In this document: piece after piece, positions 6,501-64,000 of the stretch | How positions within the stretch are numbered: position 1 is the first letter of the stretch | Layout of the letters: every line of letters starts with the position of its first letter | Source of the DNA: Eledone cirrhosa | Lineage: Eukaryota | DNA length: 64,000 nt | Direction: 5' to 3' | Assembly: GCA_964016885.1 (NCBI GenBank) | Contig: OZ024742.1 | Span: 85,808,001-85,872,000 of the forward strand | Translations under genes and position numbers: made by a program | The notes under the pieces: model-generated | Told to the model about the DNA's origin: nothing | Database searches by the model: none | What the model saw: the letters and a program-made list of their open reading frames with translations, nothing else

Positions 6501-7267
6501 ATTTTTCTAGTGCATTTCAAATGAGGTGTGATCTTCCTTCCGGATTTAAACTGCTGCTTCGGAATGTTGTAATATTCCACTAGCCAAAACCAAATTCTTT
6601 GTTTTCTTTCGAACTGAATTATAAGCAGAGAGCTGAAGTTGCCTTTCAAGTTAAATGATGCAGCAAGCTTTCGTTTAAAGCCCTTTTTTCGTACCGTCCC
6701 TTTGTCGAGAGAGCGGTGCTATGTCTAAAAGGATCTCATTGTCAACATCAGAGGATAGGAATACCGCAAATTGCTCATTATTTCTGCATGAAAGTCCAGC
6801 AGATGATGGTCGCCGCTGTGTAGAGTTCCAGCTAATACCATTTAGTTGTCCCTGTTGCATTTCATCGCTCCCCAGTGAACTTTGTGTTAATGATGGGGTA
6901 TCAAATAGAGAGATCTGTTAGAGCTGTTGAACTGCCTACGCAAATTAAATATGTATTATTAAGAAGGGTTGATACAGATATAGATAATAGAGGATCGATG
7001 CAAACGTTTGCAAAGAACACACGGAACAACACAACTCAGGTATTACCTTAGAGTACTACTAATAACTTCAAACCCAGTACACATAGTTGTGGCGTTTGTG
7101 ACTGAACCGGCATCCCCACCAAACTTGCTTGATAATGAGGGTTATTTTTGAACATCGTACGGGACGAAAAACAAAGTCTGTTAAAGAGGCTGAAGAACAC
7201 TTGAGAAGCAACGGGCATCATTTTCTGCTTGTCTGTTCCTCTGTCACTTCCCCTCTCTCTCCCCATA

Positions 7268-17860: not shown

Positions 17861-18012
17861 AATTGTGTGAACATTTCACTTATAGATTCATTATATATCT
17901 TTTTGAATATCAGTTCTCAAGCTTTCTATGATAAACTCCTCAACTTTCTTGATGTATATCAAAAGCACAAAATATATTATATTTATGAGAACGTGTGACA
18001 AAACTCTATAAC

Positions 18013-31574: not shown

Positions 31575-32247
31575 ATATCTCGAAGATTGCATTTCGTTTC
31601 GTTTGTGGGCACCGCCAAAATGCGATCTCCCTGAAATAATATTTATATTAATCTCCCGGACCTAGCAATTAATTAGTTAATTCAATTAGACAATTCTATT
31701 GACTAATTAATTGCTTAAGTCAATTCTATTGACTAATTAATTGCTTAAGTTTATTTAAAACAATCCGGTCGAGAGCTTACTTTGAGTTGTGCAGTTTTTT
31801 GCAATTTTTGCAATACATTTACACAATTTGAATGCATCCGCCAAAAACCAGGGTTACCTCTCTTACAGGGTAAACACGTAGGGTAGTCACTCCACCATGA
31901 CTACTGCATTGGAACCCGCTGGCCGGCTGAGAAGAAAATACCTGTTGACGAAATGGCTGCCTTGTTCGATCTTTATACCAAAAGCTTACAACGAAAGCAG
32001 GCAGTATAATTGAATTAAAAGTCACAGAAACATTCCACTGGATTCTACCAACAATTTCCAGGAGGTCCAGGTAAATTCTTTTTTTAACCTGTTTAGCTTA
32101 CTTCGTTTATTTGTTGGCTCCGGTGGCTGATGGCTTCACGACAACTCTTTTCATTTTGTCTGGCGTCTATAACGTATGTTAATTGCGCTGGTCTGCTTTT
32201 AGTCCATTGAGCGCTTGCCGGGTATCTCGAAGATTGCGTTTTGTTTA
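31575..32247. mobile_element. ~650-bp non-autonomous element with terminal redundancy, between (TA)n
   Basis: ATCTCGAAGATTGC at ~31577 and ~32224. The internal part is homologous to 36250-36575. Confidence 0.65.
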
Positions 32248-32264
32248 TATATATATATATATAT

Positions 32265-35200
32265 ATTAGAAATTGGAATAAATGCTCTGAAATAGCGATA
32301 TATATGTGAATATAGACATAGAATATTCGAAAATATTCTGTATGTTTATAATAAACATTTTGAAGACCTAATCGCTATAGAATAGAATACGTCACGTATT
32401 ACAATTAGATTCTCGATAAAAGCAAGGGAAGTAATCTACGCGTTTCATTCTTGTTAGAAATCATCAGGACTACATATCCAGTGCTTTTATCGAGAATGAC
32501 ACAGCTAGAGACTTATAGAATACTTAGCTGTGTACAGGAACTGGTTTGAAAGAGCGGTTGCCGGTCCGGCAGAAATTAGAAATTGGAATAAATGCTCTGA
32601 AATAGCGATATATATGTGAATATAGACATAGAATATTCGAAAATATTCTGTATGTTTATAATAAACATTTTGAAGACCTAATCGCTATAGAATAGAATAC
32701 GTCACGTATTACAATTAGATTCTCGATAAAAGCAAGGGAAGTAATCTACGCGTTTCATTCTTGTTAGAAATCATCAGGACTACATATCCAGTGCTTTTAT
32801 CGAGAATGACACAGCTAGAGACTTATAGAATACTTAGCTGTGTACAGGAACTGGTTTGAAAGAGCGGTTGCCGGTCCGGCAGAAATTAGAAATTGGAATA
32901 AATGCTCTGAAATAGCGATATATATGTGAATATAGACATAGAATATTCGAAAATATTCTGTATGTTTATAATAAACATTTTGAAGACCTAATCGCTATAG
33001 AATAGAATACGTCACGTATTACAATTAGATTCTCGATAAAAGCAAGGGAAGTAATCTACGCGTTTCATTCTTGTTAGAGATCATCAGGACTACATATCCA
33101 GTGCTTTTATCGAGAATGACACAGCTAGAGACTTATAGAATACTTAGCTGTGTACAGGAACTGGTTTGAAAGAGCGGTTGCCGGTCCGGCAGAAATTAGA
33201 AATTGGAATAAATGCTCTGAAATAGCGATATATATGTGAATATAGACATAGAATATTCGAAAATATTCTGTATGTTTATAATAAACATTTTGAAGACCTA
33301 ATCGCTATAGAATAGAATACGTCACGTATTACAATTAGATTCTCGATAAAAGCAAGGGAAGTAATCTACGCGTTTCATTCTTGTTAGAAATCATCAGGAC
33401 TACATATCCAGTGCTTTTATCGAGAATGACACAGCTAGAGACTTATAGAATACTTAGCTGTGTACAGGAACTGGTTTGAAAGAGCGGTTGCCGGTCCGGC
33501 AGAAATTAGAAATTGGAATAAATGCTCTGAAATAGCGATATATATGTGAATATAGACATAGAATATTCGAAAATATTCTGTATGTTTATAATAAACATTT
33601 TGAAGACCTAATCGCTATAGAATAGAATACGTCACGTATTACAATTAGATTCTCGATAAAAGCAAGGGAAGTAATCTACGCGTTTCATTCTTGTTAGAAA
33701 TCATCAGGACTACATATCCAGTGCTTTTATCGAGAATGACACAGCTAGAGACTTATAGAATACTTAGCTGTGTACAGGAACTGGTTTGAAAGAGCGGTTG
33801 CCGGTCCGGCAGAAATTAGAAATTGGAATAAATGCTCTGAAATAGCGATATATATGTGAATATAGACATAGAATATTCGAAAATATTCTGTATGTTTATA
33901 ATAAACATTTTGAAGACCTAATCGCTATAGAATAGAATACGTCACGTATTACAATTAGATTCTCGATAAAAGCAAGGGAAGTAATCTACGCGTTTCATTC
34001 TTGTTAGAAATCATCAGGACTACATATCCAGTGCTTTTATCGAGAATGACACAGCTAGAGACTTATAGAATACTTAGCTGTGTACAGGAACTGGTTTGAA
34101 AGAGCGGTTGCCGGTCCGGCAGAAATTAGAAATTGGAATAAATGCTCTGAAATAGCGATATATATGTGAATATAGACATAGAATATTCGAAAATATTCTG
34201 TATGTTTATAATAAACATTTTGAAGACCTAATCGCTATAGAATAGAATACGTCACGTATTACAATTAGATTCTCGATAAAAGCAAGGGAAGTAATCTACG
34301 CGTTTCATTCTTGTTAGAAATCATCAGGACTACATATCCAGTGCTTTTATCGAGAATGACACAGCTAGAGACTTATAGAATACTTAGCTGTGTACAGGAA
34401 CTGGTTTGAAAGAGCGGTTGCCGGTCCGGCAGAAATTAGAAATTGGAATAAATGCTCTGAAATAGCGATATATATGTGAATATAGACATAGAATATTCGA
34501 AAATATTCTGTATGTTTATAATAAACATTTTGAAGACCTAATCGCTATAGAATAGAATACGTCACGTATTACAATTAGATTCTCGATAAAAGCAAGGGAA
34601 GTAATCTACGCGTTTCATTCTTGTTAGAGATCATCAGGACTACATATCCAGTGCTTTTATCGAGAATGACACAGCTAGAGACTTATAGAATACTTAGCTG
34701 TGTACAGGAACTGGTTTGAAAGAGCGGTTGCCGGTCCGGCAGAAATTAGAAATTGGAATAAATGCTCTGAAATAGCGATATATATGTGAATATAGACATA
34801 GAATATTCGAAAATATTCTGTATGTTTATAATAAACATTTTGAAGACCTAATCGCTATAGAATAGAATACGTCACGTATTACAATTAGATTCTCGATAAA
34901 AGCAAGGGAAGTAATCTACGCGTTTCATTCTTGTTAGAAATCATCAGGACTACATATCCAGTGCTTTTATCGAGAATGACACAGCTAGAGACTTATAGAA
35001 TACTTAGCTGTGTACAGGAACTGGTTTGAAAGAGCGGTTGCCGGTCCGGCAGAAATTAGAAATTGGAATAAATGCTCTGAAATAGCGATATATATGTGAA
35101 TATAGACATAGAATATTCGAAAATATTCTGTATGTTTATAATAAACATTTTGAAGACCTAATCGCTATAGAATAGAATACGTCACGTATTACAATTAGAT

Positions 35201-35668
35201 TCTCGATAAAAGCAAGGGAAGTAATCTACGCGTTTCATTCTTGTTAGAAATCATCAGGACTACATATCCAGTGCTTTTATCGAGAATGACACAGCTAGAG
35301 ACTTATAGAATACTTAGCTGTGTACAGGAACTGGTTTGAAAGAGCGGTTGCCGGTCCGGCAGAAATTAGAAATTGGAATAAATGCTCTGAAATAGCGATA
35401 TATATGTGAATATAGACATAGAATATTCGAAAATATTCTGTATGTTTATAATAAACATTTTGAAGACCTAATCGCTATAGAATAGAATACGTCACGTATT
35501 ACAATTAGATTCTCGATAAAAGCAAGGGAAGTAATCTACGCGTTTCATTCTTGTTAGAAATCATCAGGACTACATATCCAGTGCTTTTATCGAGAATGAC
35601 ACAGCTAGAGACTTATAGAATACTTAGCTGTGTACAGGAACTGGTTTGAAAGAGCGGTTGCCGGTCCG
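32265..35668 (-). repeat. Tandem array of 11 x 310-bp hammerhead-containing units (retrozyme-like concatemer)
   Basis: AATTGGAATA recurs every 310 bp from 32271 to 35371. Copies look identical except for A>G at 33079 and 34629. (TA)n on the left. Confidence 0.97.
32409..32497 (-). ncRNA. Type I hammerhead ribozyme (copy 1 of 11; repeats every 310 bp to 35509-35597)
   Basis: Minus strand GUAGUC-CUGAUGA-U-UUCU(AACA)AGAA-U-GAAA-CGCG-UA/GAUUAC. Stem I is GUAGUC:GAUUAC, extended by a 16-bp helix (ATTCTCGATAAAAGCA:TGCTTTTATCGAGAAT). Stem III is the palindrome ACGCGU. Predicted cut between 32437 and 32436. Confidence 0.88.
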
Positions 35669-35784
35669 TTACTTCCCTTGCTTTTATCGAGAATCTAATT
35701 GTAATACGTGACGTATTCTATTCTATAGCGATTAGGTCTTCAAAATGTTTATTATAAACATACAGAATATTTTCGAATATTCTA

Positions 35785-35793
<9 letters not shown>
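35669..35793 (+). repeat. Inverted partial copy of the 310-bp unit terminating the array
   Basis: TTACTTCCCTTGCTTTTATCGAGAATC...TTCTATGTCTATA is the exact reverse complement of ~32310-32434, then runs into (TA)n. Confidence 0.95.
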
Positions 35794-35847
<54 letters not shown>

Positions 35848-35848
35848 G

Positions 35849-35932
<84 letters not shown>

Positions 35933-35934
35933 AA

Positions 35935-36571
35935 TATAGACATAGGTTATAAAAGCCAAACAAAGTGAGATGGCGGTCAAGAAGCCATCAACCACCTAAG
36001 CCCAAAAAAACGAGGCAAGCGAAACAGGTTAAACAAAATAATTGAAATATTTACCCGGACCCTCGAAAAGATGGTATAATCCAGTCCATAGTTTCTGCGA
36101 CACCTAAATCAATTATACTGGTTGCTTAAAATAATAAGCTTTTGGTATAATGATTGAACAAGGCTGTCACTTCGCCAACAGGTATTCTGTTCTACGCCAG
36201 CATATAGAATCAGGCAGTGGTATGTATGTACTACATACCACTTGTTCAATCATTATAGCAAAAGCTTATTATTTTAAGCAAGCAGTATAATTGATTTAGG
36301 TGTCGCAGAAACTATTGACTGGATTATACCATCTTTTCGAGGGTCCGGGTAAATATTTCAATTATTTTGTTTAACCTGTTTGGCTTGTCTCGTCTTTTTG
36401 GCTTAGGTGGTTGATGGCTTCTTGACTGCCAACTCAGTTTGTTTGGTTTTTATAACCTATGTTTATTACTCTGGCCTTTATCTGCTCCATGGAGCGCTTG
36501 CCAGCATAACTGGGATATTACACTTCGCTTTGTTTTCGACCACAGCCGGAATCCGAATCTCGCTGAAATCA

Positions 36572-47505: not shown

Positions 47506-47512
<7 letters not shown>

Positions 47513-50500
47513 TGGTAAACGGAATAGAAAATGCTGACAAATTGTTCACAGTTGAAAAATGGTTTAATTAGGAATAAAAGAGTATTAGTAATTGTATGGG
47601 TTAGTATTCAGTTGTGGTTTTAAGTTTTTAAGATCTTACCGGTTGCGCATTTCTAAATGCTTTTCAAAAATAATTTTGAGATAGAGTGTCCGTGTTGGTT
47701 GCTTTGATCTGATTAGTTTTGGGAATTCTACCTGTTTTTATGTTAAAAAAGTGGCTCCAGCGTTACTTTGGTGTTGCAAAAATTCTTGTGGTCAAAACAA
47801 TTTTGATTGGTCGGTAGAGGTCATGTGAATGTAAAAAATTATTTTGCGCCAAGACAGTTTTTATGTTAAATACAACCAACAACGTAAGCCACTTATAACA
47901 CCACAATACAACATGGCACAGAGAAACACACACCCATGCTCGCAGTACAGTAACACCCCATTCAATCTACAACCACCAACCCGAACCACATTTTACAACA
48001 ACAAGAAATATAACAAACACAGGAGACCACTTAACATTTGCAGACAACCCCTCTACCCCAACCATTTTTTAGACACAGCACACAGATACAGGCAAACAAA
48101 ATAACACAAGACAGGGAGGAGAAACCGATAGTAATAAAAATTATCAATCTTACTAGTGCAGAACCAACACCCAACCTTATCAACTTACTCTCCAAAGGTC
48201 TTAAATTCACACCGACCCCACTACGTCCTAACTACTATGAAATGAAGGAAGACATCACAGACTTCTGTAGAAAGTTACGACTTAGTGAACAACTATTCAA
48301 CCAGTACAATGAGGATGAATCATTAGCCAGAAATAGAAGCAATTACACCCCTTCAAAAGGTAGAAATAAAATCCTGGACGAATTCTGTGAACACATCACA
48401 AACTTCCCTTACCAACACTTGCACAGACAAAAACACAAGCCAAACCTCAACAAGAAAGAATGGGAAGAATTAAATAGATTGAAAACCGACAGAACCATTA
48501 AAATTAAAGAGACTGATAAAGGGGGTACAGTAGTCCTAATGGAGACAGAATTCTATATCAACTTAGCGCTCTCTACTTTGGAAAACGAAACATACTACGA
48601 ACAGGCTGAACACTACAATCAACAGAAAATTATGAGAAAAATAAAAACTCTAATCAACCAATACAAAGAAGGACTCACTAACAAGGAATTCAGCTTCATC
48701 ACAGACTTCACAAGTAAATACAGCCTCTTCTACGGTATCCCTAAAGTACATAAAAGCGAATTAATAAGTAAGGCATGCAAGGAAGCCACAGACATAGTCA
48801 TCAATGTCCCCTCACCCAATGATCTCAAATTAAGATCTATAATAGCAGGCCCTGCTTGCGAAACGCACCGTCTTAGCAACTTCATTGATACCCTTCTCAA
48901 ACCCTTCCTCAAACACATCAAAAGCTATATAAGGGACGACCTAGATATGCTCAATCACCTCCCTAATATGCCACTTTCTGAACAAACCCTACTAGTGACG
49001 TTCGATGTAGTCAATCTATACTCCAACATCCCCCACAACCTAGGAATAGAAGCTATCCAATTCTGGCTGGATAATTTCCACAATGAACTCCCACAACGCA
49101 TGAAAAAAAATTCGTGATAGAGGGACTCAAATTTTTCTTGGAGAACAATTACTTCGTTTTCAATAACAAACCCTACAGGCAGAAATCTGGGACCGCTATG
49201 GGAACGAAAACAGCCCCCACTTATGCCAACCTAGTCATGGGATACCTGGAAATCACCCTCTACACTAAAGTCCTAAACAAATTTGGAAACACCGTCCACT
49301 TACACATTGAAAGGAACTGGAAGCGATATCTAGATGACTGCTTCATCCTTTGGCCCGAAAACATCGAAAAACTTAAAGAAGTTCACACCCTTATAAATGG
49401 GATCAACACGAATATTAACTTCACGATGGAATACAGCCATCAACAACTTCCCTTCCTCGACATCCTCATTAAGATCCATAACAAAAAAATAGAAACAGAC
49501 ATATACTACAAGCCCACAGACTCCAAGCAATATATCCCCTTCAACTCTTGCCACACTAGACACGTTAAAATTAATATTCCCTACAACTTAGCCAAGAGAA
49601 TCTGTACTATAGTCTCCAATAAAAACATCTGCTACTTACGGCTACAAGAACTAAAGGACACACTCATAGGCAGGAACTACCCTGCATCACTAATTGACAA
49701 TGGAATCCAACGTGCCCTAAAACTCAGTTCCCAGGACCTTAGACACCCTAAAGTAAATCAACCGAAACTAAAAGCTCTTCCATACATCTCCACACACAAC
49801 CCTCTCAACAATGAGGCCTTTGACACCATCCTCCAGAACATCCTTGTGCTGAAAAAGGACCATAGAATGAACCAAATTCTACGAACACACGATATCATAA
49901 AGAGCAAAAGACAATCCAAGTCAATGAAAAACATCTTAACACATGCCAAAGTACTGCCAACCACAACAACGAAACCCACAGTAAAAAAATGCGATAGACC
50001 CAACTGTGGCATTTGCATCAACCTAATAGAGGGTTCGGAATTCTATTTCAAAGATGGACAACGTTTTATAGTAAAACACAATTTCACATGTGCATCGGAA
50101 AATCTAATATATGTATTAACTTGCTTAGGTTGTCGAGAACAATACATAGGCCAGACCAAACACAGCCCCCGCCAACGCATGACTGTCCATAGATCCCAAA
50201 TTAAAATACGGGAATACAGGAAAATACCACTGAGTGAACACATTGATACCTGTGCCGCCCAAAATCATCCCAAGTTTAGAATCTTTCCCCTCTACAAATT
50301 TAAAGATAATGCCACCCACACCCAGCGCATCAGCAAGGAATCTTACTTCATTAACAAATACGGACCCCGTCTAAACACTTCTCCCTAAGAGGAACCCACA
50401 ACAGACACACGTTAACATTCATACCTACATCAGCACACATCTCCACCCACATATAAACACAATGACATACGTAAACACACATGCTCTATGGTGCAACACA

Positions 50501-50516
50501 GAAAAATATATGTGTA

Positions 50517-50570
<54 letters not shown>

Positions 50571-51150
50571 ATATATGTATGTGTATATATATGTAGTGAA
50601 TATCATTTCACACCTTTTATTGTTAAGATTTTTGATGTTCTATTAAGAGAACCGATTTTACTGAAAAAATCGAATAATGTACACCATTTTACCAGGGGGG
50701 AAAGATACTGTACTGCGAGCATGGGTGTGTGTTTCTCTGTGCCATGTTGTATTGTGGTGTTATAAGTGGCTTACGTTGTTGGTTGTATTTAACATAAAAA
50801 CTGTCTTGGCGCAAAATAATTTTTTACATTCACATGACCTCTACCGACCAATCAAAATTGTTTTGACCACAAGAATTTTTGCAACACCAAAGTAACGCTG
50901 GAGCCACTTTTTTAACATAAAAACAGGTAGAATTCCCAAAACTAATCAGATCAGAGCAAACAACACGGACACTCTATCTCAAAATTATTTTTGAAAAGCA
51001 TTTAGAAATGCGCAACCGGTAAAAACTTAAAAACTTAAAACCACAACTGAATACTAACCCATACAATCACTAATACTCTTTTATTCCTAATTAAACCATT
51101 TTTCAACTGTGAACAATTTATCAGCATTTTCTATTCCGTTTACCAATATA
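47506..51150 (+). mobile_element. Neptune-like Penelope-like retroelement with ~445-bp inverted pLTR segment
   Basis: 47506-47952 and 50706-51150 are near-identical inverted repeats; the left end abuts (TA)n and the right ends in TATATA. RT-GIY-YIG ORF between them. Confidence 0.92.
48038..50388 (+). CDS. PLE reverse transcriptase + GIY-YIG endonuclease (one frameshift at A8, 49103-49110; probably 5'-truncated)
   Basis: LLSKGLKFTP, ETDKGG, FYGIPKVHK, LVTFDVVNLYSNIP, GTAMG, WKRYLDDCF, PFLD, CDRPNCGIC linker, NLIYVLTCLGCREQYIGQT, RMTVH. Confidence 0.92.
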
Positions 51151-52793: not shown

Positions 52794-54473
52794 TTAAGTT
52801 AGCCATGTCAGCTCATTTCTCTCAGCCCGGTTGTTAAGTGGGGGTCTGAGGTTCTTAATAACAAGTGCTTCCTTTATCCTTAAGGATCCGATGCTGCGTT
52901 CAGTCGCTAGGACTGTGACCAAGGGTCTACCCTGTGGGTTTCCGCATTTAAGGATGTGTTTACGGAAGGAAGATGCGTTGGTGTTGATATGTTCCTTGAT
53001 ACGAACATGCAGGGGTCGGATGGTGCTACCTATGTAAAACTTGTTACATTTATCGCATTGAATCTTATATACGACATAGGTGCGTAGGCAATCTGCCCCC
53101 CGTATCGGACAGTTGCTGAGGGAACACGTCCCATCTGACTCGTCGGGTTTGTTGGAGAGGCATCTTCGCAGCGAAGGTCCTGTGTGAGCCAAATGTATGT
53201 CAAGTACCTCCGTCCGTATGGCCCTGCGGATGGCGTTCGTGGTATATTCACTCAGGTGGGGGATTTTAAAGAAGCACCTGCTTTTAGTTAAGTTTCTAGT
53301 GGGAGTCTGTCTATTGGGTCTGGGGTCTCTAATTCCGTTAATCAGTCGCTTGGGATATCCATTAGACCTGAGTAGATTACGGAATTGCGTGGTATGGGTG
53401 AGACCACCCATCGGGTCGCTGCATCTGTTAGTGATCCGTGTCAGTTCATTTAGGACATAGCCTCTCTTAGCGTTGTTGGGGAGGGCTGAGTTGTAAAGCC
53501 CAAATAAGTCCTTGCACGCTGCTTTGCGGTAGAAGGTGGTGTTTATGTCTCCTTCTTCCGAGATGTTGATACGGAAGTCGAGGAGGGCGAGTGACCCGTC
53601 TTCTCCTGGGTGTTCGATGGTGAAATCGACGTGATGGTCAGTATCGTTGAAGATTTGGTGAATTTCATTCGCCATCTCCCGGGAAGAAGTAAGTATCAGG
53701 ATGTCATCAACGTATCTGGAGTAGAAGGCGACGGCGTTGGGTTGGCAGGTATTGAGTGCCTTGCGTTCCAGGTGGTCCATGTACGAGATCGCAAGTATGC
53801 CGGACAGACGAGAGCCCATAGGTAGCCCAGAGATTTGTTTGTACGTGTGGCCGAGGAAATTGAAGAGTGCATTATCCACAACGAAGGAGAGGAGTTGGTG
53901 GATGTCCGTGTGTGTGAGTCCGAAGCAGTGTAAGTTAGATGCTCGGACTCGTTCGGTCAACACGTCGACGGCTGGGGATGCTTGTACGGAGGTATAAAGG
54001 GCGACCACATCAAGACTGAAGGCATAACCGTTGTCCTTTCTGGTGTTGGGCGCCAGATGGTGTAGTCGCTCCAAGACCTCCTTTGAGCTGCAGACGTGGG
54101 CTGGTAGTGTGTGTAGAATAGGTTTCAGTAGTGTGAAGAGCAGCCACGATATTTTGTAGAGTGGGCCCTCCACGCTAGAGACAATGGGCCTGATTTTCAA
54201 ATCGGGTCCTTGTTTATGTGTTTTAACCAGGTGGTAGAAGGTGGGTAGTTTGCTGTTTCGAGTCATTATGTTGTTTTTTACCTTCTTTGGCAGTTTTCGT
54301 TGGACACAGATGTTAGTCCATATGGTGTTAATGCCTTCCTCGATTAGAGTCGAGGAGGTCCCTGTGACTTTCGAGTAGAGGCTGTGGTCGTTAAGATGTT
54401 GGAGAGCTAAGTTGTTGTAGGTCTCTCTCGAGATGACACAGAATTCTTTCCCCTTGTCAGAGGGAAGGTACAC
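52794..54473 (-). CDS. PLE reverse transcriptase + GIY-YIG endonuclease (559-aa open segment; N-terminus frameshifted)
   Basis: PSDKG, FYHLVKTHK, RPIVS, FSLDVVALYTSV, GLPMGS, YSRYVDDIL, VVYKIQCDKCNKFYIGST, RIKEH, KEALVI...LN. Confidence 0.92.
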   Translation of the reverse strand: MYLPSDKGKEFCVISRETYNNLALQHLNDHSLYSKVTGTSSTLIEEGINTIWTNICVQRKLPKKVKNNIMTRNSKLPTFYHLVKTHKQGPDLKIRPIVSSVEGPLYKISWLLFTLLKPILHTLPAHVCSSKEVLERLHHLAPNTRKDNGYAFSLDVVALYTSVQASPAVDVLTERVRASNLHCFGLTHTDIHQLLSFVVDNALFNFLGHTYKQISGLPMGSRLSGILAISYMDHLERKALNTCQPNAVAFYSRYVDDILILTSSREMANEIHQIFNDTDHHVDFTIEHPGEDGSLALLDFRINISEEGDINTTFYRKAACKDLFGLYNSALPNNAKRGYVLNELTRITNRCSDPMGGLTHTTQFRNLLRSNGYPKRLINGIRDPRPNRQTPTRNLTKSRCFFKIPHLSEYTTNAIRRAIRTEVLDIHLAHTGPSLRRCLSNKPDESDGTCSLSNCPIRGADCLRTYVVYKIQCDKCNKFYIGSTIRPLHVRIKEHINTNASSFRKHILKCGNPQGRPLVTVLATERSIGSLRIKEALVIKNLRPPLNNRAERNELTWLT

Positions 54474-54959
54474 AAGGTTCCTGGATCTTAGGTTGGTGAG
54501 AGTATTAAATTGTGCATTGGTGAGGTTGCGTTTATTGTGTGTGTGTGTGTGTGTTGGGAAAGGATGTTAGAGATAGAATGTTTCAACCTGAGTAGTTTAG
54601 TGTCAAGTTCGTGGTTGGTGGGTGGGGGTGGAGTGGGTTGTCGAGGTGGTACGTGGGGAGTGCGGGGTGGGTTGTGGGGTTGTAATCGATCTCGGTGTTG
54701 TTTTGGATGGCGGTTAGCCATTTCAGTTGATATGCTGTCCGACAGAAGTTGGTTTCGATGTCGAGTTTCAGTCTATCATCGAGACGCTGTGTAATGATGA
54801 ACTCGGGTCCGAGGCGCAGAATTTCGAGTTCGTCGTTGGTGAGGGTACCGGTTAGGTATATATATATTAAAGAGTTAAACAAGGTTCAATGAATACACCA
54901 AAGAATGAGTTTTACAATTGATTGGAAGCACTGAACAGTAATAAGGTTTTCCAGAGTTA

Positions 54960-61085: not shown

Positions 61086-64000
61086 TTTCATTTATTAGCC
61101 ACAAGGGCCGACATGTAGATGACAATACAAAGACAGGGACAGTGGGGGTTTACAATTAGGTCAAGTAAAAGTGCACAATGGCAAGACTAATTTAACTATG
61201 AAGATATAAAAATATAAAATAAACTATGCATAAATATAATAAAATAAATTCCTCGATAGGGGGTGGACGACCCTGAGGTGACTCAAGTACCCCACCAATC
61301 CTGAACCACCCTGCGCTTCTAGGGCACCCAGGGAGAGCACCCCTCTCCTCAAGTTAGCTAGCCTATAGGCGCATGGTCAGAGTAGGCCCATTCACACGAG
61401 CCATTCTCGCCACATCCATCCACCTTCTAGCAAATATACTGGGGGGCAGCACTTCTCTCTCCAACCTCACCTTCCTTTCCAGGTGAAACTTGAAGAAGTT
61501 GATGAGTGATTGGCCGAAGAGAAATAGTCTGTCTTCAGTCCTTTTAACCTGGTCCACCATATAACCTCTTTCGCAACTGCCACAAGACAGAGGAAAATTG
61601 CCTGCTCTTCCTGACCTCAGGAAGGCGGCGGGTCGATCTTCACTATGGACTCGGCCGATAGCCGGATTCGTTCCACACGCGACAGTAGCTGTTCGACATA
61701 ACTCCACAATTTAGTAATGCACGGACATTGAACAAGAGTGCGTGCAGAACGGTTTCGTCGTTCTGTGCGCATCTTGGGCAGGTCCGTCTGACAGCAATTC
61801 CGTGCCTGTAGAGTTTATCCCGAACCGGCAGTGCCCCCCGGTAGCATTGCCAAGCGAGGGATTTCTGGAAATTGTCCATCGTCCCCGGCTGAAAACCTCA
61901 GGTACAGACTGGTCAGTTTGACTTCGTCGAGGCCCAAAGCTTCTCCGAGTGCGTCGTCGCACTTGCCCACCACTAATCCTCTATAGAACTCTAGAGTGGA
62001 AGTTGCACTGATCGCATTTCCCACTTGGTAGAGGGCAGTGAATGCCTGGCAACATTCCAAGTGCCAGTCACCCAGTCTCTGTCTCTTCTTGACCCAGTAC
62101 TGCAGCTCAGTCAAAGAAATGGGCTGCGGAAAGACCCGTCTGATAAACGGCGACCACACTTGTTCACCGTTGAGGCAGAATATCTGTAGATGTCGCAGCC
62201 TCAACGCATGTCTGCGCATCATTAGCCACAGCATGCCCAGCCTTCCGCGTAGAGCGTGCTTACCAACGGAACTTGTCCCCTCACAAGAATTTGAAGAGGA
62301 GCCATTCCAACTTGACGAGGCGCGGACGACGGCAAGGCACGACGATCAGGTGGTAGTAGATGGCGGACCCGATGTACGTTTCGCCACCTCCGAGCGACCT
62401 TTCAGTGATAGCTTCCTCCCAGCCCATTCTGGCGTGAGACTGGCAACTCTGCTCGTTACCTCGTCCCAATAATTTTCCACCTGGAGGTCTGGTCCAAACC
62501 AAACCCCGATTACTTTACCGGTCCTTCCGTCCAGCGCCCCAAAACGCTATTGGACGGCATGGGCTTGCCTCTCCAGGTTCCGAGCTGCAAGCCCACCGAC
62601 TTTTCCGGGTTAAGTTTAGCTCCTGTCAACCTTTCATATTCCTTCAATAAGGTACCAATCACCTCGATTTATGAGGTGTTTGACACCATCACGGTGATGT
62701 CGTCCGCATAAGCCGACCCCGCCTTTCCCCGTCCCGTTACGAGCGGGATGCCCTGCAAGTAAAGGCTCGAGAGTCAATACGTACAGAAGCGAGGAGAGAG
62801 GGCACCCTTGACGGACCGATTGGGAGAGCCGAAAAGGTTCCGAGATGTGGCCATTGACTTTCACCACCGAGCGTGTGCCGCTGTGCATTGCAGCGATCCA
62901 ACTTCTAAAGACAGGGCCGAAGCCAGCTGCTTTGAGGACAAACTCCAGATACCGATGGACGACCCTATCGAATGCTTTCGGTTGATCTAAATTGATCAGT
63001 GCCCCACCGAAGCCAGGTTTACACCCTACCCTCTCTATGATGTATCGCATGAGGTGGAGATTGTCGTTTATAGACCTCGCTGGGATTGCGCAAGTTTGCG
63101 CCTCCCCGACCAAATCCTCGACGACAAGCGACAATCTCTTTGCTAGCACGTTGGCTAAAATCTTAAACTCTGTGTTGAGCAGAGTTATGGGCCTGAAGTT
63201 GTCTAATGTATCCCTCTTGTTCTCGTCTTTCCTTATCAGCGTCGCCACTCCCCTGTTCACAGAACTGGGAATACTCCCATCTGCTCCAGTTGCAGTAGAG
63301 TGCTTCGAGGAGTTCGGAGAACAAGTCTGGCATATTTACGTAAAGCTCGTAGGGCAGGCCATCCAAACCGGGTGACTTGCGTCTGATGCAGCCGACAAGG
63401 GCGTTCTGAATTTAGGCTGAAGTAATCGGCCTTTCACAGAGCTCAGCTTCGAGCGTCGAGATACGCGGCAAGCCGTCAAGGTAGGGACTGAAATCCGCTA
63501 CTGTCTCTGACTCGCCACTCTCCACAAAACACCGAGCAAAGTGCTGGCGAAAGACCTCACACATGCGCTTGGAATCGCTTATCTCGTGTCCGTCTCGGTT
63601 CACCAAAGACCTAATTGTGGTTTTATTACCACGCTGTGCCTCCGCCACGCGGACCCATTGAACAGCTCTGGTTCCCTCGTTTCTCAGCGCACGCGCCTTA
63701 GCTCTGACAATGCAACCTTCGTGTTTCGCATTGAAGAAATTGTCTAATGCCATTCTCGCCGCTAGCACGACAGTTGCAATGCCACTACAAATAGCCTCGC
63801 CTAACTTATCTACCAGCTCCCCCTCCTTTCTATTTTTCTCTAACGCTAGTTCTTTGCTGAACTCTATCGAAGTTACTCTAATCTGTCTTTTGAGAGCCCC
63901 CCCCACCATCTGTTGTTGATGATCCCCCATGTCAACTTTTGCTTAACTAAATTGTTGACTCGGTCCCTGTAGACTTTACGTGCCGGAAATGACAGGTTCA
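61086..64000 (-). mobile_element. Tx1/L1-clade LINE, ORF2 disrupted by frameshifts; continues beyond the window
   Basis: DGLPYELY, NFRPITLLNTEFKILA, LINLDQPKAFDRV, VRQGCPLS, AYADD (~62700-62714), LAWQCYRGALPV...CPRC...ETVLH (zf-RVT). Stop at 61363; AATAAA just before the (ATT)n tail. Confidence 0.92.

Follow-up and report, generated by a model that had tools for sequence, protein, structure and literature searches.

A young non-coding hammerhead repeat of Eledone cirrhosa, probably inserted by copying one circular RNA from both ends of a TA target

Results

The locus in the window

The window, i.e. the whole stretch of 64,000 nucleotides of Eledone cirrhosa DNA that was analysed, contains a two-armed insertion of a 310-bp repeat. 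Throughout, the RNA is the minus strand, and the monomer is numbered from the predicted hammerhead cut. The long arm (32265..35668, minus-strand RNA sense) is composed of 10.98 tandem retrozyme units running from monomer 179 to monomer 172, where it has a class B outer end (see below). The short inverted arm (35669..35793, plus strand) covers monomer 3-127 with a class A outer end; it is an exact 125-bp reverse complement of the unit followed by (TA)n, and its last 5 nt fit the TA tract as well as the monomer. The two arms meet head to head (5'-5') at 35668..35669 in a blunt junction with a microhomology of 0, monomer 179 standing against monomer 3. A (TA)n tract at 32246..32264 borders the long arm on its outer (3') side and, as read from the sequence, is likely one primer end of the target, while a (TA)n/(CA)n tract at 35789..35938 abuts the outer end of the short arm and is likely the other. 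In these respects the original prediction was accurate: it had placed the end of the array at 35668, followed by an exact inverted 125-bp piece of the unit running into (TA)n, had estimated the array at about 11 units, and had located the breakpoint no more than 2 nt from the predicted cut in a 310-nt unit.

There are two unit differences in all within the array 32265-35668. Both are the variant 288 U>C on the minus strand, at 33079 and again five units on, at 34629; the variant marks units 3 and 8, which may belong to a block duplicated after the insertion. To the right of the TA tract, at about 35935-36470, a further inverted pair of about 240 bp is apparent by eye.

The hammerhead motif and the monomer

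No open frame of at least 120 aa overlaps 32265-35793, and the repeat is non-coding and, without RT and GIY-YIG, not autonomous. With 310 bp and a G+C content of 106/310, the unit is within the range of retrozymes (150-450 bp, GC below 50%), and a terminal repeat is not evident in any of the parsed loci; non-LTR retrozymes have no LTR, primer-binding site or polypurine tract. One of the 11 predicted minimal type I hammerheads lies at 35531..35573 on the minus strand and, judged from the letters, consists of stem I, CUGANGA, stem II, GAAA and a palindromic 2-bp stem III; its GUA cut is predicted between 35537 and 35536. The cut-to-cut monomer, 35227..35536 on the minus strand, is the predicted 310-nt circle. 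It has a folding energy of -72.5 kcal/mol and folds far better than shuffled sequences (z -4.38).

The core and the stems of the hammerhead can be read in all 11 unit copies. Pairing was evaluated over 20 sequence variants, 5 variants with a 1-nt insert being excluded, and was found to be 100% in stem I, 100% in stem III and 82% in stem II, which has one U-U pair. The stem changes across the 20 variants are all one-sided, with 0 compensatory pairs, and the Rfam search returned no hammerhead match at the gathering score. As a weak control of constraint on the core, 17 units are variant at position 293 vs 8 at position 303. Several subfamilies (L031, L103, L121, L129, L151 and others) carry an extra base 2-3 nt past the predicted cut, which is fixed throughout each insertion. 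The extra base is present in 83 of 870 read-throughs of the cut, and it may stem from variation of the ligation site.

The family in the genome

One 25-mer taken from the unit matches the 3.0-Gb genome exactly at 17,942 places. Since the first 100 matches listed fall in 17 loci, we estimate roughly that the family has about 3,000 insertions. For comparison with the window locus, 116 other loci were parsed, namely these 17 and 99 of 118 loci sharing the short-arm end of the window locus; 99 of the 116 were therefore chosen for one A end (127), and most loci thus for one TA end. A head-to-head junction was found by the BLAST parser in 98 of the 116, and three more were added from the k-mer parser (L082, L085 and L144, whose junctions lie at reference edges and were missed by BLAST), giving 101. 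L052 belongs to an older subfamily, its arms starting near 127 and 59, and was excluded. Between the parsers, starts were identical in 191 of 202 cases. The remaining parsed loci are single-armed, gapped, older, or extend beyond the fetched region. The inverted arm is the usual layout of this family and no oddity of the window locus.

Older relatives, about 65-75% identical, were also seen (L217 2433-2864, L140 3206-3785, L040 3354-3732, L184 and L122). By eye, those in L217 and L140 have the head-to-head layout with equivalent ends. The older relatives are best conserved at monomer 59-172, a stretch where the enzyme probably binds. Also, L247 contains at 6632-6826 a short TA-flanked inverted element whose hammerhead stem II is that of the 310-bp family while its other stems differ.

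Inner breakpoints and the predicted cut

According to the original prediction, the short arm of the window locus ran off a 5'-OH end made by the ribozyme, so that the junction would be a genomic record of cleavage in vivo. The start at position 3 and the blunt junction agree with this. If run-off were the rule, the inner arm starts of other insertions should gather at the cut. We evaluated 208 arm starts at 104 other junctions, with the window locus excluded, and found 1, 3 and 5 of them within 2, 5 and 10 nt of the cut, where a uniform spread predicts 3.35, 7.4 and 14.1, respectively; for the distance of 2 nt, the upper 95% bound of the proportion is 2.3%. When the unit is divided into ten bins, the distribution of starts is not clearly uneven (p 0.057). 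The breakpoints are spread along the unit, which is the outcome that the prediction itself had named as refuting this reading. Furthermore, the cut site is crossed 751 times in 202 arms. Only 7 A arms do not cross it, and these start at 11, 14, 27, 30, 37, 59 and 99. In the window, the long arm itself passes 11 predicted cut sites on its way from monomer 179 to 172.

A genome-wide search for the arm-start pattern gave the same picture, with 59 rows in the 16-nt cut window (304-9) vs 109 in a control window at 202-217. Five of the 59 rows belong to one variant array and were set aside, and 30 of the 59 were checked by script. A hand tally of the other 54 rows gives 2, 3, 0, 1, 5, 8 and 2 starts at positions 304-310 and 4, 5, 2, 2, 3, 3, 8, 6 and 0 at positions 1-9. 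Positions 1-3 account for 11 of the 54 rows vs 10 expected; the profile is flat inside the cut window, without a peak at the cut. Arm starts may even be depleted around the cut, at monomer 301-10, to judge from a small sample (5/208 within 10 nt, 14.1 expected, p 0.004). The lower genome-wide count near the cut is suggestive only, since its one control window lies in a bin above the average of the parsed loci (26 vs a mean of 20).

Two other loci have starts like that of the window: in L085 one arm begins precisely at position 1, and in L256, an edited insertion described below, the right arm begins at 2-4. A rare nicked circle is also possible at any single locus. Nevertheless, with two starts per insertion and a chance of 5/310 for each, about 3% of insertions are expected to have a start this close, and with about 3,000 insertions the 2-nt distance at the window locus is no more than chance; it is most likely a coincidence. 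We thus regard run-off from a ribozyme-made end, and with it the reading of this junction as a record of cleavage, as very unlikely. Inner breakpoints are not a map of ribozyme cleavage, and a false lead is removed.

Two fixed outer ends at a TA target

Unlike the inner breakpoints, the outer ends of the arms fall in two classes. Class A ends lie at about 122-130 (mostly 125-130) and class B ends mostly at 165-172 (156-159 in some loci), and the two are about 35-40 nt apart, like the 'tail' of Penelope elements. The 101 junctions comprise 75 A-B pairs, no A-A pair and one B-B pair; a different end occurs in 5, and in 20 an end lies beyond the fetched region. In a second sample of 44 junctions, picked by their inner start, the counts are 17 A-B, 0 A-A, 0 B-B, 4 with another end and 23 open. 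Pooling both samples gives 92 A-B, 0 A-A and 1 B-B. The best internal match to (AU)4 is at 132-139, which is a minority end. Of 79 cases, 60 have a TA tract on both sides and 78 have one on one side or both, most of these loci having been chosen for one TA end. In non-LTR retrozymes a target duplication, where there is one, is longer than 4 bp; inside a TA microsatellite it would not be visible. Microhomology of at least 2 nt is present in 39 of the 74 insert-free junctions, compared with 18% in simulation (p 1.6e-11). In L031 and L124 the junction is duplicated, both breakpoints occurring twice with a short piece between them, which suggests template switching while joining.

Either arm can be the longer one. 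Among the 75 A-B pairs, the A arm is longer by more than 1 unit in 21 and the B arm in 30, and the lengths of the two arms correlate (rho 0.44, n=81). Of 225 variants that are fixed in either arm, 221 are fixed in its partner too. Most unit-specific variants are limited to one arm. The claim that both TA ends of the target primed cDNA synthesis is upheld by the two different fixed arm ends, the freedom of either arm to be the longer, and the one shared template. Twin priming is supported.

These counts also bear on a fold-back, in which a single cDNA was copied back on itself to produce the inverted arm, akin to the self-priming idea in the available text of PMC3846280. Such a step accounts for the shared variants and for the tail at one end, and a few junctions do use the unit's own stem of 14-22 nt. 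A copy cannot exceed its template, yet in 21/75 and 30/75 pairs the A and the B arm, respectively, is longer by more than 1 unit, and the confinement of most unit-specific variants to one arm is likewise not what copying one arm from the other would give. We consider a fold-back extremely improbable; the arm lengths speak against it unless most of the length was gained later than the insertion.

Edited insertions and the shared template

Two insertions allow the template to be followed through both arms. L256 (G000:C2, near 273.396 Mb), read in RNA sense, shows 11 A>G changes that are present in both arms and on every pass; one of the 11 is a common allele. Its changes convert the catalytic GAAA to GGGG, and the ribozyme core is destroyed. 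In L282 (G000:C1, near 380.306 Mb) there are 14 A>G changes, again on every pass and in both arms, besides three subfamily alleles. These A>G sets are identical on 5-6 or 9 passes and in both orientations. By probe search, L256 is the sole locus in the assembly with G at 303, and L282 the sole locus with G at 78. A third A probe found one single change only, so that the hyper-edited insertions found are two. With a mirror probe for T>C there were 88 matches, all of them single changes.

It is known that A-to-I editing followed by reverse transcription leaves clustered, strand-specific A>G changes, and that ADAR avoids a 5' G neighbour. The edited sites show no avoidance of a 5' G (4/24 vs 15/92 for all A), so the enzyme has not left its fingerprint here, and we infer an A-to-I editing enzyme from the changes themselves. 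The recurrence of the same A>G set on every pass in both arms indicates that a single molecule served as repeated template for both primers. Since the GGGG core of L256 is dead, its editing would have come after cleavage and ligation. Taken together, this points to one edited RNA circle that was read round by two reverse transcriptases.

Passage through the cut was also inspected at the sequence level. Ten of the 870 read-throughs differ from the majority of their locus, and of these 8 apparently belong to a second insertion in the locus and 2 are single substitutions; a sporadic indel at the cut occurs in 0 of the 870. This is relevant to a linear template, which might be a multimeric transcript left uncleaved, from a source array of uniform units, or a cut monomer to which the enzyme returned by repeated template jumps. 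A uniform source array would also yield shared variants, and uncleaved RNA is the main substrate of one Penelope protein in vitro according to the available text of PMC11167929. Edits on a multimer should vary by unit, yet all 14 and all 11 changes recur with each pass, and the edits of L282 or L256 are found at no other locus. Had the template been re-entered by jumps, stops and scars would be expected at the cut; neither is seen. A source array lost from the assembly would itself require a step in which a single molecule is repeated. We therefore hold a linear template to be quite unlikely.

Some growth of arrays did occur after insertion. L275 (G000:C28, near 75.81 Mb) is a long, older array in which linked variants are repeated in blocks. 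An alternative origin would be short insertions that lengthened afterwards through unequal crossover or gene conversion, or arrays that are artefacts of the assembly. The blocks of L275 would fit later growth, as may the variant at units 3 and 8 of the window array. Sporadic variants recur at the same site within an insertion in 16 of 123 pairs vs 0.4 expected, which we do not count as evidence because later duplication can produce it. Neither growth nor assembly artefact accounts for the pairing of A with B ends, for the correlation between arm lengths, or for strand-specific A>G clusters that are present in both inverted arms, and every insertion has its own junction and its own variant set. 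As an account of the family, this origin is highly improbable.

Two further observations concern the variants. Those confined to single units comprise 31 T>C vs 10 A>G in RNA sense (p 0.007), a skew that is possibly the error signature of the RT in vivo, with G put opposite U. With units counted from the outer end, both arms of L139 have 229 C>A in units 2 and 3 and lack it in units 0 and 1; here the template may have changed midway, or the circle may have been multimeric.

Helper element candidates

The window also contains a Penelope-like element at 47510-51150 with RT and C-terminal GIY-YIG, a frame broken near 49100, and TA flanks. By eye, it has an inverted segment on its 5' side in the same layout as the retrozyme, and a second inverted copy of its 5' segment is seen at about 50700-51150. 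A second RT/GIY-YIG open frame (590 aa) lies at 52794-54566 and an RT fragment (233 aa) at 62634-63335, both on the minus strand. The genome has 10,596 GIY-YIG candidates. An autonomous partner sharing the 310-bp repeat was found neither in the window nor in 40 loci taken from the 150 candidates scored out of the 10,596, the only matches being TA-tract noise and older relatives of the retrozyme. The helper of the 310-bp repeat is presumed to be a Penelope-like enzyme.

Discussion

Proposed mechanism

The family is a non-LTR retrozyme with Penelope-type integration. For the window locus, we propose with a probability of about 0.75 that it is a copy of this young non-coding hammerhead repeat, made when both ends of the target copied one circular RNA. 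In such a process, the array transcript would cleave itself and the monomer would be ligated to a circle, sometimes undergoing A-to-I editing afterwards. A Penelope-like RT/GIY-YIG enzyme would cut both strands in (TA)n. One 3' end would then start at about 127-130 and the other at about 165-172, the positions at which the outer ends of the arms are found, and both enzymes would travel round the circle, passing the ligated cut site. Each would end at a nearly random point, after which the two cDNAs would be joined via 0-5 nt of microhomology, as found at the junctions, and presumably filled in. At the window locus, one primer would have been extended for about 11 rounds and the other for 125 nt. 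With somewhat less confidence, we lean towards a more specific form of the proposal, where two reverse transcriptases on one double-strand cut start about 35-40 nt apart and circle one closed RNA simultaneously, the editing having taken place after circularisation and in the germline.

Comparison with known systems

Metazoan non-LTR retrozymes are described in the available text of PMC7229834, PMC7761336 and bioRxiv 10.64898/2026.07.22.740005 as tandem, low-GC, non-coding repeats of 150-450 bp with a type I hammerhead in each unit, and the same sources propose that they are copied from circular RNA by a Penelope-type RT. The 310-bp family resembles them in being a short, low-GC, non-coding tandem repeat with a predicted type I hammerhead in every unit and many dispersed copies. 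It differs in its two-armed insertions and in a pair of edited copies that suggest one circle as the template. In the available text, the word 'inverted' occurs in 0 places in PMC7229834 and, in PMC7761336 and bioRxiv 10.64898/2026.07.22.740005, in a reference title only. Searches of the literature outside subscription journals listed no paper on retrozyme insertions with two arms or on edited copies of retrozymes.

Penelope-like elements, as far as the available text of PMC8557442 and PMC3846280 describes them, are accompanied by an inverted 5'-truncated copy lying head to head, have a tail of 30-40 nt at one end and insert in AT-rich or microsatellite targets; the origin of the inverted structures is called open there. 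In vitro, according to the available text of PMC11167929, both strands are cut and extended by a purified Penelope protein, whose two internal RT starts bound the tail; hammerhead cleavage is not required. The 310-bp family shares the head-to-head inverted copy, the 35-40 nt tail at one end and the TA microsatellite target. On the other hand, it has no ORF, and in many insertions each of the two arms holds several copies of one short unit. The strict rule of one A and one B end, together with the shared template, was measured in the 310-bp family.

In the twin priming of L1, both target ends prime cDNA and the products are joined head to head with microhomology. The 310-bp family differs from L1 in that it has no poly(A) tail, both of its start sites are fixed, and its template is apparently circular.

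Significance

The edited insertions serve as molecular barcodes, since edits that recur on all passes of the two arms link both primer ends with one and the same RNA. In the available text of PMC7229834 and PMC7761336, the copying of retrozymes from circular RNA is a hypothesis, and in that of PMC8557442 the inverted ends and the tail of Penelope elements are called unresolved. With about 3,000 natural replicates and a substrate of 310 nt, the family makes both questions testable, i.e. how retrozyme circles are copied and how the inverted ends and tail of Penelope elements arise. If the more specific form of the proposal is true, it would give genomic proof of the circular template that was proposed for animal retrozymes, and it would account for two long-standing puzzles of Penelope elements, the inverted ends and the tail at one end only.
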